A program made the position numbers and the translations under genes. A stretch of DNA of 64,000 bases from an uncultured Candidatus Saccharibacteria bacterium (lineage in GTDB: Bacteria > Patescibacteriota > Doudnabacteria > UBA920), in contig CAZHYL010000002.1 of assembly GCA_964536745.1 (NCBI GenBank), positions 68,969 through 132,968 of the forward strand, written 5' to 3'. Below the pieces are notes generated by a model. The model worked only from the letters and a program-made list of their open reading frames with translations, was not told where the DNA came from and made no database searches. Of this stretch, positions 5,094 through 64,000 are shown one piece after another; the stretch's first letter is position 1, and every line of letters starts with the position of its first letter.

Positions 5094-5942
5094 ATGGCAT
5101 CTATTAAGGAAAACATAGAAATACAAACTGGCGGGGCTGTTCTAGCTGCACAGGAGGGTTTGTATAAGAGTAAACAAACCTTTTTCAATCTCCCACTCTG
5201 GGAGAGAATACTTTTAATAATCGTTCTGGTCTCCTTAGTCCCTGGTTATACAGCTGTTCGCTATGGTACAGAGTTGGTCTTAACGAAACTTAATGCCAGA
5301 GATTCATTAGTTGCCCAGCCATCATTTTCTGTTCCAGAACCCTTAGAAGTAGGGAAGGTTACAGTTATCAAGAATGCTAATGACACGTATTCAGCATTTG
5401 CTACTGTTACGAATCCGAATTTAGATTTAGCTCTACCAAATTTAAAGTACACTTTTAAGTTTAGTACTAGTAACGCAGAACAGGTTGCGACTCAAGGCGG
5501 TCAGAATTATTTATTACCAGATCAGCAAAAATTAATCGTTGCGCCACGAGTAGTTAGCTCGCAATCCATAACTAGTGCAACCATCGAAATAGAAGAACCA
5601 CAATGGCAAAAACGATTAACTGTTCCTGAAGTTGAATTGCGAATGGCCGAGCCTTATGTCTATGAAGAAGTGAACCCTTTAGCTACAATCGTTGAGGGAT
5701 CAGTTGTTAATAATAGTGAGTTTGCATTGAAGCAAGCATCATTGGTAATAGTTTTATACGGGGATAACAATAAAATCTTGGCTGTTTCTCAAAGAGAAGA
5801 GTATACTCTAAAACCTTACGAACGAAGAGCTTACCGACTTTCTTGGCCGGGAATAAACAGAGCTTCAGTTAAAAAAGTAGATTTAAAAGCATATACAAAT
5901 TTGTTAGATGAAACCAATCTCTCAGTAGATACAGAAAGGTAA
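5094..5942 (+). CDS. Hypothetical membrane-anchored protein
   Basis: 282 aa ORF with one N-terminal TM segment (ILLIIVLVSLVPGY). No recognisable domain. Confidence 0.6.
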   Translation: MASIKENIEIQTGGAVLAAQEGLYKSKQTFFNLPLWERILLIIVLVSLVPGYTAVRYGTELVLTKLNARDSLVAQPSFSVPEPLEVGKVTVIKNANDTYSAFATVTNPNLDLALPNLKYTFKFSTSNAEQVATQGGQNYLLPDQQKLIVAPRVVSSQSITSATIEIEEPQWQKRLTVPEVELRMAEPYVYEEVNPLATIVEGSVVNNSEFALKQASLVIVLYGDNNKILAVSQREEYTLKPYERRAYRLSWPGINRASVKKVDLKAYTNLLDETNLSVDTER

Positions 5943-24151: not shown

Positions 24152-24643
24152 AATCCTCCAATGCAGTGTGATTTTCAAACAAAAACACATAACTAAAAAA
24201 GTTGTGTGTTTTTGTTTTGCTTCAAGCAGGTTCGTAAGCCGGATTTTGTGTCTACATGACAATCTATCTAGGCACCTTGTTGCCAAGCTGCTCGTGCTGC
24301 CCACCAAATTTGGCATTGCACTCAAGTAAGAATTTTGCCGTTTCACCCTTATAGTTTCCTATAAGGTTAATCCCGAAGGATTCCTTTGCATCTCTGCTTA
24401 GGCGTCACTGTTCGCATCTCTAGAGTTACCTCAGACGGGCGTTACCCGCTACTATTGTTAAAAGCTCATATGATACTTTCAACTTGAGTGTCCGGACTTT
24501 CCTCTTCAAACAAAGTAAGAAGTAGTCATGCGGCCTGCTTAAAGCTATTAAATAGTGCCACAGATTTGTGTTTTTGTCAATCAGAGAATCCATAATTTGA
24601 TGATATAATTAAGCTAAATTCACTAAATTAACACTATATTTTT

Positions 24644-41240: not shown

Positions 41241-42332
41241 ATGGGAATACTCGATACAATCATTGACTCACATCAAAAAGAATCATTGCAGGAATTTGAA
41301 CTAAACCAAATCATTACAAAGATTCTTGAACCATTAAAAGAACGCGAGAAGACTATTTTGTCTAAGCGTTATGGTCTTAATGATGAGCAAATTCAAACTC
41401 TTAAAGTAGTAGGTGAGGAACAGGGGCTTACAAGAGAACGTGTTAGACAAATTGAAAAAGAATTATTGAAAAACCTTAAGCGTGGGGTAAATGAACTAGA
41501 AGATTTTATTGCCGCGAAAGATCTTTTGATTAACACTATCGCTGAACATGGTGGAATTATGTCAGAAGAGGCTCTAACTAATTATTTGGGTTATACCGAA
41601 CCAACAGACGTTCAAGCTCTTAAATTTTTATTAAAGCTTATCGCTGAACTAGAAGAACATTCAGCAGATGAACACATTAGACAATCTTGGACTAAGATTG
41701 GTTTTGATAAAGATTTCTTACATCAGTTCGTAGTTGTCACTAAAGATTTACTAAACAATCATGGAAAGCCTGTTCAACCAGAAGAATTATTGTCAAAGAT
41801 TGAAAAGACCGATTTTTATTCCGAAAATCAAGCTAAGCTAACTCCTAAGGTTATGCTTAACTACTTGCACACCGCAAATAATGTTAAGAAAAATCCATTT
41901 GGTGAGTTTGGTTTAGGACACTGGAATGAAATTAAACCAAAAGATGTAGGTGACAAAGCTTACTTAGTAATGAAGCACCACGGAAAACCAGAGCACTATT
42001 CTGTAATCACTGATATGATTAACGAGCACGGAATAGATAAGCGAAAGGCTTTTAAAGAAACTGTACACAATAAACTAATTAAAGATAAAAGATTTGTCTT
42101 GGTTGGAAGAGGTATTTACGCCCTTACAGAATGGGGATACCAACCCGGCGTTGTTTCAGATATCATTGTTGAAATTTTGAAAGAAAAAGCCGAGCCTATG
42201 ACTCGCGACGAAATTGTTGAAGAAGTCTTGAAGAGACGATTAGTAAAGAAAAATACTGTACTTGTGGGATTGTCTAATAAAAAATTGTTTAAGAAAGTTG
42301 GAAAAAATCTTTACGATTTAACAACCGCCTAA
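41241..42332 (+). CDS. DNA-binding protein: N-terminal sigma-70 region-4-like HTH followed by two HARE-HTH-like winged-helix segments
   Basis: 363 aa. EREKTILSKRYGLNDE...QGLTRERVRQIEKELLKNLKR resembles sigma region 4. RFVLVGRGIYALTEWGY and TVLVGLSNKKLF...NLYDL resemble HARE-HTH. Confidence 0.5.
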   Translation: MGILDTIIDSHQKESLQEFELNQIITKILEPLKEREKTILSKRYGLNDEQIQTLKVVGEEQGLTRERVRQIEKELLKNLKRGVNELEDFIAAKDLLINTIAEHGGIMSEEALTNYLGYTEPTDVQALKFLLKLIAELEEHSADEHIRQSWTKIGFDKDFLHQFVVVTKDLLNNHGKPVQPEELLSKIEKTDFYSENQAKLTPKVMLNYLHTANNVKKNPFGEFGLGHWNEIKPKDVGDKAYLVMKHHGKPEHYSVITDMINEHGIDKRKAFKETVHNKLIKDKRFVLVGRGIYALTEWGYQPGVVSDIIVEILKEKAEPMTRDEIVEEVLKRRLVKKNTVLVGLSNKKLFKKVGKNLYDLTTA

Positions 42333-42367: not shown

Positions 42368-43549
42368 ATGAACAACGGCCTACTCCCAGACATAACAAGC
42401 GTACTCAATATTATTTGGTTCCTATTCAGTCATGGTGGATGGGTCGTTTTTGTTTTACTTGTAATCTATATTTTGTATCAATTGTACCTTAATGAAATCC
42501 AAAGTCAGTATCTAAGCACAATTGAATGGACCTTATTGGAAATAAAACCACCTAAAGAGAATGCCACTAGTTTTTACAATGCCGAGCAAGTGTTTATTCA
42601 GTTACACCAATTATTTGATAATTTTAATTTTCAGGAAAAATACTTAGAAGGGAAGTTAGTATTTACTATTTCCTTCGAAATAATCAGCCTTGGTGGAAAG
42701 ATATCTTATCTTGTACGGGTTCCAACAAAGCAGAGAGATTTACTAGAAGCAGCGCTCTATGCAAACTACCCAAGTATAGAACTCACAGAAGTAAAAGATT
42801 ACTTAGATAATTTTAAATATGACCCAGAAAACAAAACTTATGATTTGTTTGGAGCAGAGTTTGTACTGGTAAAACCTCAAAGTTACCCAATTAGAACATG
42901 GCGCGAATTTGAAAGTTTACATGGTCCAGAAACCAGTGAAATTGTTGTAGATCCATTAACACCATTATTTGAAACATTCACCAAGATTAGTGATCAGGAG
43001 TTTTATGGCGTACAATTCATTTTGCAACCTGTTATGGATGATTCTTGGCACGACGAAGCAGAAGAAATTGTCGAAAAATTAAAAGGTGAAAAGGAGTTAA
43101 TCGCTTTAGATGATATAACTAAACAGCAAATTACCTCTATTAAAAATAAACTTGGTCGTCCAGGATATAAAACCAAGATTAGGCTCTTACATTTGGGAGT
43201 TAAGGAACATTTTAATAAGAATGCAAAGAAATTGGTCTTAAGTCCGTTTCGCATTTTCAGTTCTGCTAATTATAATGGTTTCAAGCCTGCATTTGGCCCT
43301 AAGAAAGATTATAAGATCTCACCATCACTAGAAGCTCCCTACCTAGATTGGTGGGTAAAAAGACGTAAACAGCAATTATTTGAGGGTTATAAAGCCAGAA
43401 CACAGTACATAGGTGAAAGTACTTACATTCTAAATACAGAAGAGCTCGCAACCTTGTTCCATTTCCCAATTACAAAGACCGCAGTTACACAACCTGTAGA
43501 AAGCCTAGATACCAAGAAGATTCAACCACCAGCTAATTTACCAATATGA
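42368..43549 (+). CDS. Single-pass membrane protein of unknown function, partner of the downstream coupling-type ATPase
   Basis: 393 aa with an N-terminal TM segment (IIWFLFSHGGWVVFVLLVIYILY). Its stop overlaps the start of the ATPase gene by 4 bp. Confidence 0.55.
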   Translation: MNNGLLPDITSVLNIIWFLFSHGGWVVFVLLVIYILYQLYLNEIQSQYLSTIEWTLLEIKPPKENATSFYNAEQVFIQLHQLFDNFNFQEKYLEGKLVFTISFEIISLGGKISYLVRVPTKQRDLLEAALYANYPSIELTEVKDYLDNFKYDPENKTYDLFGAEFVLVKPQSYPIRTWREFESLHGPETSEIVVDPLTPLFETFTKISDQEFYGVQFILQPVMDDSWHDEAEEIVEKLKGEKELIALDDITKQQITSIKNKLGRPGYKTKIRLLHLGVKEHFNKNAKKLVLSPFRIFSSANYNGFKPAFGPKKDYKISPSLEAPYLDWWVKRRKQQLFEGYKARTQYIGESTYILNTEELATLFHFPITKTAVTQPVESLDTKKIQPPANLPI

Positions 43550-45300
43550 GTTCACAACCAGATCAAATAAATTTTTTCGCTAAAACTAACTTTCGTAACA
43601 AGCAAGTGCCTTTTGGTATAAAAACCGATGATAGGCGCAGGCACATGTATGTAATCGGAAAGACAGGGATGGGAAAGACAACCATGATGGAGAACATGGT
43701 TATTCAAGATATCCGAAATGGCAATGGAGTTTGCTTTATCGACCCGCATGGTGATTCCATCCGAAAAATCCTAGATTTCGTACCACCAAACAGAATTAAT
43801 GACGTGGTATATTTTGATCCATCCGATTTAGATCACCCAATTGCATTTAACATTTTAGAGTCAGTTGAAAGTAGATATAAACATTTGGTAGCTTCAGGCT
43901 TAATGGGTGTGTTCACAAAAATCTGGGCCAGCATGTGGTCTAGTCGTATGGAATACATCTTAAATAACACCATTCTTGCTTTACTAGATAGCCCAGGAAA
44001 CACAATGCTTGGTATAGTCCGTATGTATGTAGATAAAAAGTACCGTAAGAAAATTGTCGACAACATCAAAGATCCTATGGTAAAAGCTTTTTGGGTAGAA
44101 GAATTCGCAAACTACGCAGAAAAATATCGAACAGAAGCTGTGGCACCAATTCAAAATAAAGTTGGGCAGTTCTTATCTTCCGCAGTAATCAGAAATATCG
44201 TTGGTCAGCCAAAATCCACGATTGACCTGCGGGAGATCATGGATAACCGCAAAATCTTACTACTAGACCTTTCTAAAGGAAAAGTAGGTGAGGATAATTC
44301 AGCTTTGCTTGGTGCAATGATCATCACCAAACTTCAGTTAGCAGCACTCTCACGTGTCGATATTCCTGAATCAGAAAGACAAGACTTTTATCTTTACGTG
44401 GACGAATTTCAAAACTTCGTCACAGATAGTTTTGCAACAATTCTATCCGAAGCTAGAAAGTACCGTTTAAATTTAACTATCGGACATCAGTACATTGGAC
44501 AATTAACCCCAGACAACAATACAAAAGTAAGGGATGCTGTGTTTGGAAACGTTGGCTCAATGGTAGTGTTTAGAGTAGGTGCAGCAGATGCAGAGTACTT
44601 GGAAACTGAATTTGAGCCTTCTTTCACCCCAACTGATATCGTGAATCTTCCTAAATTCCACATCATTCTGAAACTCATGATTAATGGAATGACTAGCGAC
44701 CCTTTTACAGCTGTCACAATCCCAGTTGATGAAAACTGGATAGTTGGTAATGGTGAAAAGGTAATAAAGGTTTCAAGGGAACGATATGCAAACCCAAGAG
44801 AACAAGTTGAAGAGAAGATTCAACGTTGGATGGGAACGGAATTCCATGAAGCTTCTGCGGAATCTCATAGTAGTGAACAGGGAGAACAATCTTTAGCAAG
44901 AGTAAAATCTCCTAAAGTAGAATCTACCAAGCCAGAACAGTCCGAAGAGAATGAAGTAAAAATACCAGTTGAACAAAATGACAGCCCTATGCCTAAGCCT
45001 AGTATTCAGATTTCTTCTGATTACTTAGAAAGGGTAAAAACACCGAAACAGAACGCGCAAAAGTTTACGAAGCCGAACCAAAAATCATTCTCTAAAAATA
45101 AGAACCAAAAGCCTGCTTCAAAAAATAATAAGCCAGATGTTTGGAAAACTGCTCAGAATTTACAACAAGATAATCAAAAGAAGGTCGCAGAGGATATTTC
45201 TTCGGCAATTGAGTCCGCCTTCACTAAACAGGCAGAGCCACAGTCGGCCAAGCCTAATGATTCTAGTTCAATAGAGCCTGGTCAAACTTATCAACTCTAA
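43546..45300 (+). CDS. VirD4/TraD/TrwB-like type IV coupling-protein-family ATPase with a disordered C-terminal tail
   Basis: 584 aa. Walker A VIGKTGMGKTT, then FIDPHGD about 20 aa downstream, Walker B LYVDEFQNF. The roughly 150-aa C-terminus is rich in K, Q, N, P and S. Confidence 0.65.
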   Translation: MSSQPDQINFFAKTNFRNKQVPFGIKTDDRRRHMYVIGKTGMGKTTMMENMVIQDIRNGNGVCFIDPHGDSIRKILDFVPPNRINDVVYFDPSDLDHPIAFNILESVESRYKHLVASGLMGVFTKIWASMWSSRMEYILNNTILALLDSPGNTMLGIVRMYVDKKYRKKIVDNIKDPMVKAFWVEEFANYAEKYRTEAVAPIQNKVGQFLSSAVIRNIVGQPKSTIDLREIMDNRKILLLDLSKGKVGEDNSALLGAMIITKLQLAALSRVDIPESERQDFYLYVDEFQNFVTDSFATILSEARKYRLNLTIGHQYIGQLTPDNNTKVRDAVFGNVGSMVVFRVGAADAEYLETEFEPSFTPTDIVNLPKFHIILKLMINGMTSDPFTAVTIPVDENWIVGNGEKVIKVSRERYANPREQVEEKIQRWMGTEFHEASAESHSSEQGEQSLARVKSPKVESTKPEQSEENEVKIPVEQNDSPMPKPSIQISSDYLERVKTPKQNAQKFTKPNQKSFSKNKNQKPASKNNKPDVWKTAQNLQQDNQKKVAEDISSAIESAFTKQAEPQSAKPNDSSSIEPGQTYQL

Positions 45301-61144: not shown

Positions 61145-61822
61145 ATGAAAAAAATCTCACGAATCATTTTTATCTCGGTATTCTTTGGTAGCTTTGTACT
61201 TTTCAATTTTACTATTGTTAATGCAGCTACAACTGCCAGCCCAACAGAAACTACTACCGCTGAAATGCATCAAACCGATTCTGTAGAGTCTGCAAATGCC
61301 ACCACACCAGAGCACTCTGAAGACACAGGAGTTGTTGGACTCTTTGGCTTGAATTGGAAACTATTCCTTGCTCAACTGATTAACTTCGCAATTGTGTTAT
61401 TTGTACTATGGAAATGGGTCTGGAAACCTGTAACTTCTGGAATGGAAGCTCGTACCAAAAAAATTGAAGATTCCTTACTGACTGCAAATAAGATCGAAAA
61501 TGAAAAAATTCTTTTTGAAGAGTGGAAATCAGCAGAGATGAGTAAAGCAAGAACTGAAGCCACTAGTATTATTAACGAAGCCAAAACTACTGCTGTTCGT
61601 ACAAAAGATCAAATTTTAGAACAGACCAAACAAGAACAACAGGGAATCATTGATAGAACAAAAGTTCAACTTGCCAAAGAGCAAGAATTGGCAGTTTCAG
61701 AAGCAAAGCAACAACTCGCAGAACTGGTTGTAATTGCTACTGAAAAGTTACTTCGTTCCAAATTAGATACTAAATCAGACCAAAAGCTTATTAATGCGGC
61801 ATTAAAAGATAGGGAAGAATAA
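61145..61822 (+). CDS. atpF: F0F1 ATP synthase subunit b, with an N-terminal extension
   Basis: 225 aa with signal/TM, Ser/Thr-rich spacer and second TM, then a long charged helix. Confidence 0.75.
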   Translation: MKKISRIIFISVFFGSFVLFNFTIVNAATTASPTETTTAEMHQTDSVESANATTPEHSEDTGVVGLFGLNWKLFLAQLINFAIVLFVLWKWVWKPVTSGMEARTKKIEDSLLTANKIENEKILFEEWKSAEMSKARTEATSIINEAKTTAVRTKDQILEQTKQEQQGIIDRTKVQLAKEQELAVSEAKQQLAELVVIATEKLLRSKLDTKSDQKLINAALKDREE

Positions 61823-61823
61823 T

Positions 61824-62222
61824 ATGAAATTCACCGCCAAACAATATGCTGAAAGCTTGCATGAAGTAATTGAACAAAGTAGTCCCAAGGAACACGATAA
61901 AATTATTAATAATTTCATTGCAATTCTAAATTCTAATGGCGATTTAGCAGCGTACGAAAAGATTGTAAACGAATACGAAAAACTTCTTATTCTAGAAGCA
62001 AACACGAGCAACATAGAAATCACTACAGCTTCTGGAGCAAGTCCCAGCCCTACACTGCTCAAAGAACTCAACCAGTACGCAAAAGATAAAGCGAAAATTA
62101 CCAAGACAACAGATGACTCAATTATCGGAGGGGTAATTATAAAAGTAGATGATACACTAATTGACGCAAGTTTAAAAACCCAACTCAATTCCATGGAAGC
62201 TAATTTAAAGGAAAATCTATGA
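61824..62222 (+). CDS. atpH: F0F1 ATP synthase subunit delta (short form)
   Basis: 132 aa between atpF and atpA with a C-terminal [26 protein letters not shown]-like segment. Confidence 0.7.
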
Positions 62223-63718
62223 ACAGTAATATAATAATTCAAAAACTTAAAGACCAAATTAGTGGCTTTGATCCAAAAGCCGAGATTAGTCATGTAGGAA
62301 TTGTGACAGAAGTAGGGGATGGTATCGCAAAGATTAATGGTTTGTCTGAAGTTGCTGCTATGGAAATGCTCGACTTTGGCAATAATACTTTTGGAGTTGC
62401 GCTTAATCTTGAAGAGAGGAGTGTCGGGGCAATTATTCTTGGAGCATTCGAACATATTAAGCAAGGTGACACTGTAAAAGCAACTGGGAAAATTTTATCC
62501 GTTCCTGTTGGCGAAAATTTAATTGGGCGAGTAGTCGGAGCCCTAGGCGAACCAAAAGATGGCAAGGGCGAGATTAAAGAATCTGCCTTTTTCCCTGTAG
62601 AAAAACTTGCTCCAGGTGTTATCACTCGTCAATCTGTACACCAACCTGTACAGACAGGAATTAAGGCAATTGATGCGCTGATTCCTATCGGTCGTGGTCA
62701 ACGCGAATTAATTATCGGTGATCGTCAGACAGGAAAAACTGCGGTAGCAATCGATACGATTTTAAATCAAAAAGGTCAGAATATGATCTGTGTTTATGTT
62801 GCTGTGGGCCAAAAGGAAAGCAAAATTGCAAAAATCGTTGCGGAATTAGAAGAGCGTGGAGCAATGGACTACACAATCATTGTATCTGCGGGAGCATCTG
62901 AAGCAGCGGCATTATCATACATTGCTCCTTACAGTGGTTGTGCCATGGCTGAGTACTTCATGGACCAAGGTAAAGATGTTTTGATTGTATTTGATGATCT
63001 ATCAAAGCAAGCTGTAGCTTACCGAGAAATTTCTTTGTTACTCCGTCGTCCACCGGGCCGTGAAGCTTATCCAGGAGATGTATTCTACTTGCACTCTCGT
63101 TTATTAGAACGCGCTGCAAAATTAAACAAGGATCATGGTGGGGGATCTATAACCGCTTTACCAATTATTGAAACTCAAGCGGGAGATATTAGCGCCTACA
63201 TTCCTACCAACGTGATTTCCATCACTGATGGACAAATTTTCCTTGAAGGCGATTTATTCTATAAAGGTGTCCGTCCAGCTGTTAACGTTGGTACATCAGT
63301 ATCACGTGTGGGGAGTAGTGCTCAAACCAAAGCTATAAAAAAAGTTGCTGGTAAATTGAAACTTGCGCTTGCTCAATTCCGTGAATTAGAAGCGTTCGCT
63401 CAATTCGGTTCAGATTTAGACGAGGCCACAAGACAACAATTAGAACTAGGTCGCAGATTAACAGAACTACTAAAGCAGCCTCAATATTCACCGGTGCCGA
63501 TGGAGAAGCAAGTTGTCTCGCTTTATGCAGTTAATAACGGATACATGGATGATGTAGAAATAGAACAAGTTGGGAAGTTTGAAAAAGAACTTTATGAATT
63601 TATGGAAACTACTGGAAAAGAAGTCTTAGAAGCAATAGCCGAACAAAAAGAATTAACGGAAGAGATTGAAGGTAAATTAAAAACCTCGCTCGAACAATTC
63701 AAGCAAGGATGGAAGTAG
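62219..63718 (+). CDS. atpA: F0F1 ATP synthase subunit alpha
   Basis: 499 aa with P-loop GDRQTGKT and full alpha-subunit core. Confidence 0.95.
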
Positions 63719-63724
63719 GTTAGT

Positions 63725-63917
63725 ATGGAATATTATCTTCTCACTTGTCCTCGATCCATAAACTCAGACTTCGTGGATCTGCGGAATCGTTCGAAGATAA
63801 TATTCCATACATTAGGTGAGAGGCGGAATCGTTCTAAAATGTACTCGTATTCGCAGAATGGAATGAGATTATTAAGGTTTATGGTCTGCGGAATCGTTCG
63901 AAGATAATATTCCATAT
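63725..63917. repeat. Cluster of direct and inverted copies of a roughly 32-bp element (TCTGCGGAATCGTTCGAAGATAATATTCCATA)
   Basis: Exact 32-bp direct repeats at 63778-63809 and 63885-63916, period 107 bp. There is an inverted copy of the distal 17 bp at 63725-63741, and a degenerate copy (GCGGAATCGTTC...GAATGGAATGAGATTATT) between the direct repeats. The two 60-aa ORFs in the track, both starting MEYYL on opposite strands, are artefacts of this symmetry. Confidence 0.7.
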
Positions 63918-63941
63918 AAAAAAGGGAACCGAAGTTCCCTT
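63916..63941 (-). terminator. Minus-strand rho-independent terminator (GGGAAC-cgaa-GTTCCC) for a convergent gene that runs off the window end
   Basis: The hairpin is preceded on the plus strand by aaaaaa, which is the U-run on the minus strand. Confidence 0.5.
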
Positions 63942-63955
63942 AAGCCTACTCATCA

Positions 63956-64000
63956 CTAGATACCCGCCCAAGCCGACGACGTAGCAACATTGAGTGCCAT
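63956..64000 (-). CDS. 3' end of a high-GC minus-strand gene of unknown function (C-terminus ...ALNVATSSAWAGI)
   Basis: Open frame to the window edge with a TAG stop at 63956-63958 and a terminator just downstream. This stretch is about 58% GC, unlike the host. Confidence 0.3.
   Translation of the reverse strand: MALNVATSSAWAGI

Follow-up and report, generated by a model that had tools for sequence, protein, structure and literature searches.

The window analyzed here, a 64,000-nt stretch of DNA from an uncultured Candidatus Saccharibacteria bacterium, ends shortly after the ATP synthase gene atpA. Where atpG is expected, atpA is followed by a cluster of direct and inverted repeats and by the 3' end of a gene on the opposite strand. 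This raises the questions of whether the operon is broken at this point and what the repeats are. A preliminary description had concluded that the gamma-subunit gene is absent, that the cluster marks a breakpoint in the operon, and that its architecture resembles either a small MITE-like insertion or an iteron or operator array.

The atpA-atpG junction

The gene for the F1 alpha subunit (atpA, 499 amino acids) occupies positions 62219-63718 on the plus strand, and the open reading frame (ORF) call agrees with the stop at 63718 given in the preliminary description. A contig that extends past the window end was retrieved using the exact AtpA protein (L001, ENA ERZ27258512; window coordinate = L001 coordinate + 52218). 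Its AtpA is identical and carries Pfam ATP-synt_ab domains, and its sequence is identical to the window over the aligned overlap at 63600-64000. On this contig, atpG codes for a 285-amino-acid protein (PF00231, E = 2.8e-90) and starts 506 bp past the atpA stop. The start corresponds to window-equivalent position 64225, 225 bp past the window end, and atpD is next. Extension of the sequence, which had been proposed as a check, thus places both missing genes directly downstream. The order matches the canonical atpIBEFHAGDC series, only the junction between atpA and atpG is expanded, and neither the absence of atpG nor the operon breakpoint is upheld. What does hold is that a convergent gene on the minus strand, equipped with a promoter and terminator of its own, lies within the junction and interrupts it. 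The operon is intact, and the earlier alarm was false. Other genomes usually have a shorter gap: of about 75 in which both atpA and atpG were detected, most have roughly 10-100 bp between the two genes. Two other genes of the operon were noted for the lengths of their products (ORFs at 61145-61822 and 61824-62222). AtpF (subunit b) has 225 amino acids, about 70 of them additional N-terminal residues, and AtpH (subunit delta) has only 132 and matches only positions 51-172 of the OSCP profile.

An antisense small gene and two minus-strand terminators

Read on the minus strand from atpG, the 506-bp spacer holds a promoter, a Shine-Dalgarno sequence, a 69-amino-acid ORF, an intrinsic terminator (T1), the repeat block, and the atpA stop. 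The promoter (TTGACA-17-TATAGT, 64195-64223) is near the sigma-70 consensus (11 of 12 positions match), includes an extended TG, and lies directly against the atpG ATG. The Shine-Dalgarno sequence is GGAGGA. The ORF spans 63946-64155 (window-equivalent), and its 3' end was correctly recognized within the window at 63946-64000. Its GC content had been put at about 58%, which is too high; the value is 52.7% for the in-window end and 44.3% for the whole ORF, compared to 37.7% for the window. The encoded protein has two hydrophobic segments, assigned as transmembrane (TM) by hydropathy, and a basic tail. A Pfam search of the protein returned nothing significant, and a single other cluster (P0002, 80% identity) was found among 5.8 billion proteins. 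A profile search (HMMER) of 1.84 billion representatives recovered only the protein itself and low-complexity TM repeats. The ORF is probably a real gene because the comparison to P0002 gives a pN/pS of about 0.48 and the replacements in the TM segments are conservative.

The minus-strand terminator previously noticed beyond the repeats was confirmed as T1 (63917-63941, stem at 63922-63941), a GGGAAC-UUCG-GUUCCC stem-loop followed by U6. It is identical at 26 of 27 positions in a sister species (L003, about 82-85% nucleotide identity) and has no U-tract on the plus strand. A second minus-strand hairpin with a U-run (T2, 63674-63708; 11490-11466 plus tail on L001) lies in the last atpA codons and has 11 pairs, two of them G·U (-14.4 kcal/mol). 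In genomes with an antisense gene, a strong hairpin of the T2 type occupies the last ~40 nt of atpA, where the stem sequence differs between genomes and the pairing is kept. Equivalents with compensatory changes were found in relatives that carry an antisense gene and are weak or absent in relatives that do not.

Composition of the repeat block

The region between atpA and T1 is built from a small set of modules, and the repeats and inverted repeats are real and non-random. The 32-mer TCTGCGGAATCGTTCGAAGATAATATTCCATA occurs as two perfect direct copies, 107 bp apart as described previously, at 63778-63809 (copy B) and 63885-63916 (copy D); no such matches are expected in shuffled sequence. Copy B consists of a 12-nt box, GCGGAATCGTTC (63781-63792), and an arm, R1 (63793-63809). 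Copy D adjoins the terminator and is present in every allele. The degenerate copy reported between the perfect ones is half-unit C (63823-63854), which shares the box (63823-63834) and continues into a second type of arm, TAAAATGTACTCGTATTCGC. The inverted partner of this type-2 arm survives only in other alleles (L005 and L003, see below). The inverted copy at the left edge is also real and is 18 nt long, where 17 bp had been claimed. This arm, L1 (GTATGGAATATTATCTTC, 63723-63740), is an inverted copy of the right half of the 32-mer and is 100% complementary to 63793-63810. A longer outer inverted repeat pairs 63724-63763 with 63877-63916 (40 nt, 78% complementary).

Arm L1 is followed by S12 (TCACTTGTCCTC, 63741-63752), a segment found once in the window and unchanged in L003 and L005. 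Read on the minus strand (GAGGACAAGTGA), it is similar to the Shine-Dalgarno and start region of the small ORF (P about 0.01-0.03). Between S12 and copy B lies an apical stem-loop (GATCCA...TGGATC, 63753-63779), and half-unit C is joined to copy D by a linker (AGAATGGAATGAGATTATTAAGGTTTATGG, 63855-63884) that is ~97% conserved in the sister species by a by-eye count on alignments. A likeness of the linker to the atpA 3' end was considered and dismissed; it is not significant, since 379 of 2,000 shuffles scored as well. The three boxes are in direct orientation with start-to-start distances of 42 and 65 bp, roughly four and six helical turns. Together, arm and box form the 5' half of a core hairpin (described below), and the two perfect 32-mers are duplicates of this half. 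The allele in the window therefore has two half-units in addition to the core hairpin and is referred to as the long allele. Assignments to attC, dif, parS, DnaA-box, and CRISPR sequences were dropped by eye, as consensus and spacing do not fit. A promoter search inside the block found none on either strand, and a stand-alone small RNA or antitoxin promoter was accordingly dropped.

Alleles in related strains

The long allele was also found in an independent assembly (L220), in which the block is identical. Two other assemblies (L004 and L006) are without exactly the 107 bp that separate the 32-mers and keep a single 32-mer. The 107 bp are gained or lost by recombination or slippage between the 32-mers, and strains vary accordingly. 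A third short allele (L005) differs in its atpA-proximal arm, whose sequence is of a second type, GAATACAAGTACATTTTC, and corresponds to the right half of the degenerate copy in the window, inverted. L005 thus combines a type-2 left arm with a type-1 right arm, and the stem is lost; the allele may have arisen by genuine recombination or may be a chimera of the assembly. In the sister species L003, the core is enclosed by type-2 arms; the linker and then a type-1 half-unit come next. Two independent assemblies break within or at the edge of the 32-mer (end of L002, position 4270; end of L007, position 563), as expected because a repeat branches the assembly graph.

Divergence between L220 and L001 is uneven. 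They differ at one site in 695 nt comprising the spacer and about 90 nt on each side (L001 11408-12102), compared to 38 differences in the adjacent 355 nt of the atpA 3' region and several percent divergence in atpG. This mosaic suggests recent recombination around the cassette, with an assembly chimera as the alternative; the L220 contig has low coverage. Identity between the window species and L003 is similar over all segments, and a horizontal transfer of the cassette between the two was rejected on this basis.

A hairpin with conserved pairing

The block folds far better than shuffled sequence on both strands (z = -5.7 and -5.9). Its core is an imperfect hairpin of ~86 nt on the minus strand (63724-63809), identified from folds, pair counts against the sister species, and a covariance model. 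From the outside in, it has a 17-19-bp stem, a GA/GA 2x2 loop, 2 bp, a 3x3 loop, 3 bp, and the variable apical stem-loop. The internal loops are formed by the box and S12, with a tandem G·A in the 2x2 loop when read on the minus strand. The same architecture is found in the short allele and in L003, and the two cores were aligned to compare individual pairs.

All 27 pairs are standard in both sequences, although 11 of them are altered on both sides and three on one side. These values were reached in none of the 500 shuffles, and sliding the partners by 1-3 columns left 31%-54% of cells paired. In the apical stem-loop, three of five pairs changed on both sides, and ACTGC-TTC-GCAGT takes the place of GATCCA...TGGATC in the sister species. 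Core pairing has thus been kept even though both arms and the apex were replaced. The three one-sided changes all yield G·U on the minus strand, which is A·C on the plus strand. Predicted stabilities show the same strand bias, both in the short-allele core (-38.2 kcal/mol on the minus strand vs -34.1 on the plus strand) and in the L003 core (-36.2 vs -21.5). The covariance model (R1) scores 63724-63809 at 110.6 bits on the minus strand and 44.9 bits on the plus strand.

Sequence conservation between the two species is a mosaic. By a by-eye count on alignments, S12 is identical at 12 of 12 positions, the boxes at 23 of 24, the linker at about 30 of 31, and T1 at 26 of 27. The arms (about 26/36, ~72%) and the flanking genes (81%-85%) are less conserved. 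The hairpin is therefore structurally conserved and strand-biased with invariant loops, with the covariation evidence consisting of one comparison between the two diverged lineages that carry the element. A search for Rfam 15 families in the block returned none at the gathering threshold; the best match below it was L10_leader (23 bits vs a threshold of 44), driven mostly by T2.

Copy number and comparison to mobile elements

The 32-mer has no other copy in the 64-kb window even with three mismatches allowed, and there are no further copies of the box, arm, or S12 in the window. Across about 760 kb of loci, a search for the 32-mer, box, arm, and S12 gave no further copy beyond single chance matches with one mismatch. 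With filters off, model R1 identified only 63724-63809 in the whole window, the next best hits being ordinary terminators (<=21 bits), and in related loci totaling 234 kb it recovered only the known alleles. A scan of 185,579 genomes for an exact 26-mer of the repeat gave no match, nor did a search of viral contigs with a 24-mer. An 18-nt degenerate box pattern had two matches in viral contigs and others in metagenome contigs; none of the viral matches, and none among the metagenome matches listed, extends beyond the seed, and all are attributed to chance. Six-frame translations of the block had no match among 5.8 billion proteins, a search that would find ORFs called on other copies. Pfam searches identified no transposase or recombinase in the 40 window ORFs of at least 130 amino acids, which are housekeeping genes or have no Pfam hit, and the genes on L001 are housekeeping genes.

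The copy-number check proposed in the preliminary description therefore found no 32-mer beyond the two known copies in the window, in the related loci, or, as an exact 26-mer, in 185,579 genomes. The same description had named an atpG within the next few hundred bp and a 32-mer confined to this spot as observations that would speak against an insertion; both were made, the second for the sequence searched. Its fallback reading, a local regulatory or structural repeat, is judged better than an insertion element.

A miniature mobile element (MITE, REP/BIME, or BOX type), whether still active or a relic, inserted between atpA and the small gene with terminal inverted repeats of TATGGAATATTATCTTC... 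and a modular internal repeat, is very unlikely, although parts of the architecture fit. The inverted-repeat portion of the MITE comparison is sound: the terminal inverted repeats are perfect over 17-18 nt and 78% complementary over 40 nt. A TA dinucleotide borders TGGAAT...ATTCCA at each end as a target-site duplication would, but TA is self-complementary and merely extends the palindrome, so it is uninformative. The modules vary in copy number like pneumococcal BOX elements, and a position between convergent genes is typical of REP/BIME. Against this, neither the modules nor the hairpin model has a second copy in the window or in the 234 kb from relatives, searches of the genome and viral sequences by exact match and of the protein database by translation gave no copy, and the 40 ORFs include no transposase. 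Because no other copy was found in the sequence searched and no transposase among these ORFs, the MITE-like insertion is unsupported. L003 and L005 also have a different left arm at the same position, which points to local remodeling rather than insertion. REP/BIME membership fails on the same grounds: the hairpin is 86 nt long and confined to a single locus in the sequence searched, and no Y1 transposase is present among the 40 ORFs.

By analogy, the element appears most like a locus-specific instance of two groups of known sequences, intergenic palindromes (REP/BIME, BOX, Correia, ERIC) and intercistronic RNase III hairpins. REPs are about 20-40 nt long, occur in tens to hundreds of dispersed copies, and are associated with RAYT transposases; the REP between malE and malF stabilizes the upstream mRNA. 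The block shares with REP/BIME the imperfect palindromes in direct and inverted orientation, the location at intergenic or convergent 3' ends, the strain-variable number, and the potential for stable transcript hairpins. It differs in its 86-nt hairpin, in its restriction to a single locus in the sequence searched, and in that no RAYT-type gene was seen. BOX elements of pneumococci have the arrangement boxA-boxBn-boxC, and Correia and ERIC elements are MITEs. All are multi-copy, and Correia hairpins are RNase III substrates. These families have modular structures with variable internal units, complementary ends that form a long hairpin, and co-transcription with neighboring genes, all of which are found or, for co-transcription, predicted here. 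In contrast to them, no second copy of the block was found, and its modules swap arms locally. The RNase III sites of the T7 early region are similar in that long stems with conserved internal loops lie between cistrons of a polycistronic message. Here, however, pairing favors the strand opposite the atp mRNA, and cleavage is only putative.

Content of the junction in relatives

The nearest AtpA sequences are from Patescibacteria/Saccharibacteria MAGs (80%-88% identity). The closest relatives have a wider atpA-atpG gap, which contains a small minus-strand ORF other than that of the window species. These ORFs were read from spacer sequences, and hydrophobicity was judged by eye. They are hydrophobic in L008, L009, and L012 (56, ~58, and 76 amino acids), in L210 (60 amino acids), and in L212 and L213 (86 amino acids). 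In L211 and L222, the ORF has 85 amino acids and is basic rather than hydrophobic. Two spacers (L214 and L215) instead hold a plus-strand ORF of 238-252 amino acids with no Pfam hit, and three (L010, L011, and L013) hold nothing. The junction is thus a hypervariable slot in this clade, with minus-strand ORFs of 56-86 amino acids that are unrelated between lineages; the corresponding cassette region of the window is 63946-64224 (window-equivalent; L001 11728-12006). A minus-strand promoter adjoining atpG also occurs in L210, L212, and L012. An essential and normally compact operon can, in some ultra-small bacteria, host an antisense small gene.

Where relatives have an antisense small ORF, its stop lies 0-30 nt from the atpA stop. 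T1 and the repeat block are absent from the spacers of these relatives, which restricts the block to the window species and its sister species L003. A further irregularity was seen in the spacer of L008 (UBA926, about 5700-5920), which has two extra atpG pseudo-starts (ATGCCATCAACTCAAGAACTAACC... and ATGCCATCTACACAAGAACTCAC...), each followed by a GC-rich hairpin-like insert ahead of the real atpG start. Literature searches found nothing on an arrangement of an antisense gene and a hairpin between atpA and atpG.

Possible roles of the element

We tentatively read the repeat cluster as a locus-specific structured element that may act as RNA in a zone of convergent transcription, a reading that is plausible but falls short of probable. 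The quasi-palindromic modules would occupy the 3'-to-3' gap between atpA and an antisense gene for an orphan small membrane protein, and the element would work as folded RNA where the two transcription units converge. The minus-strand hairpin is placed between T1 and T2, the latter inside atpA, and therefore transcripts that read through T1 would carry it. The retention of T2 inside atpA was counted in support of this reading. As T1 lacks a plus-strand U-tract, atp transcription should pass the block, T1, and the antisense of the small ORF and reach atpG, and the atp mRNA would contain the complement of the hairpin between atpA and atpG. Transcription through the block is inferred for both strands. 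The likely role would be a stable duplex that marks or protects transcript ends, or an RNase III-type processing site, and its effect would be to shield the atpIBEFHA message from the overlap of sense and antisense transcription at the small gene. A sequence-specific partner would probably bind the invariant internal loops. Several observations weigh against this reading. T1 looks efficient, and little minus-strand RNA may reach the hairpin. Whole arms can also be replaced by mutation alone, through template switching at quasi-palindromes with no selection on pairing, and with two diverged lineages the covariation amounts to one comparison. L005 has lost the stem, and closer relatives do without any such block.

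The last of these points are also what a neutral origin would predict, in which local duplication, slippage, and quasi-palindrome template switching in the convergent gap produced the block as a by-product of mutational mechanics without function. This is possible but unlikely. The element is limited to one species pair, the corresponding stretch is 0-30 nt long in relatives whose genes are arranged in the same way, strain copy number varies freely, and the arms of L005 are mismatched. The 3' half of the hairpin also resembles a diverged copy of the start region of the small ORF, which suggests a local duplication. What a neutral origin does not explain is the conservation of single-copy modules that are beyond the reach of gene conversion (12/12 for S12 and about 30/31 for the linker, compared to 72%-85% for the arms and neighboring genes), nor that 27 of 27 pairs were kept at about 15%-18% divergence, with every one-sided change a wobble on a single strand. 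The box raises a different alternative, a protein-binding array (operator or iteron) that acts, for example, as a roadblock on read-through from atpA into the antisense gene and atpG. The sequence of the box does not differ between its three copies and hardly differs in the sister species, its flanks vary, and the spacing is roughly in helical phase. However, no regulator gene is adjacent, the box is not palindromic, and the short allele retains only one. A role in the internal loop of the hairpin explains conservation of the box equally well, and a DNA operator leaves the covariation of the arms unexplained, and we consider such an array improbable.

We give a similarly low likelihood to translational control of the small gene by fold-back in the manner of type I toxin mRNAs, in which the arm-plus-box half-units would serve as anti-start sequences that silence the membrane protein in longer transcripts. 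Such control is known in hok (fbi/tac) and Helicobacter aapA1 mRNAs, and the locus shares with these a small hydrophobic ORF, a strong, near-consensus promoter, and 3' sequences related to its own start; a strong Shine-Dalgarno sequence is present as well. When the block is aligned locally to the 5' region of the mRNA, the best match covers the Shine-Dalgarno sequence, start, and first codons in both species (P about 0.028 and 0.012), and the arm in each species tracks its own codons. Unlike in the toxin systems, a canonical terminator (T1) separates the ORF from the half-units and predicted pairing is weak, with duplexes between half-units and start region only around the 2nd percentile of background. 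The protein, at 69 amino acids with two TM segments, is larger than typical type I toxins and has no Pfam match. A broader proposal, slightly less remote but still quite unlikely, takes the junction as a dedicated slot in which antisense orphan small genes, mostly for membrane proteins, are exchanged by recombination. It includes the consensus promoter abutting the atpG start and the terminator written in the last atpA codons. Expression of the genes would be gated by atp transcription, their products would be regulators or toxin-like modules that target the membrane or ATP synthase, and in the window species the block would be the RNA control element of the cassette, either a start-site mimic/anti-start pair or a processing site.

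If ATP synthase expression responds to the hairpin or the small proteins, the locus would illustrate antisense control in a simple form, in organisms that have very few regulators. If there is no such effect, it would be a clear case of quasi-palindromic repeats that arise and are remodeled at a convergent-gene junction.

Other features of the window

Three features away from the atp genes were also recorded. A gene for RNase P RNA was found on the minus strand at 24219-24541 with a score of 113 bits (Rfam threshold, 100); the low score was taken as fitting the reduced RNAs common in Patescibacteria. On the plus strand at 43546-45300, a TrwB-like type IV coupling-protein domain is encoded among housekeeping genes for the cell wall and secretion. 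It is preceded by an ORF (41241-42332) with a sigma-70 region 4/HARE-HTH domain.
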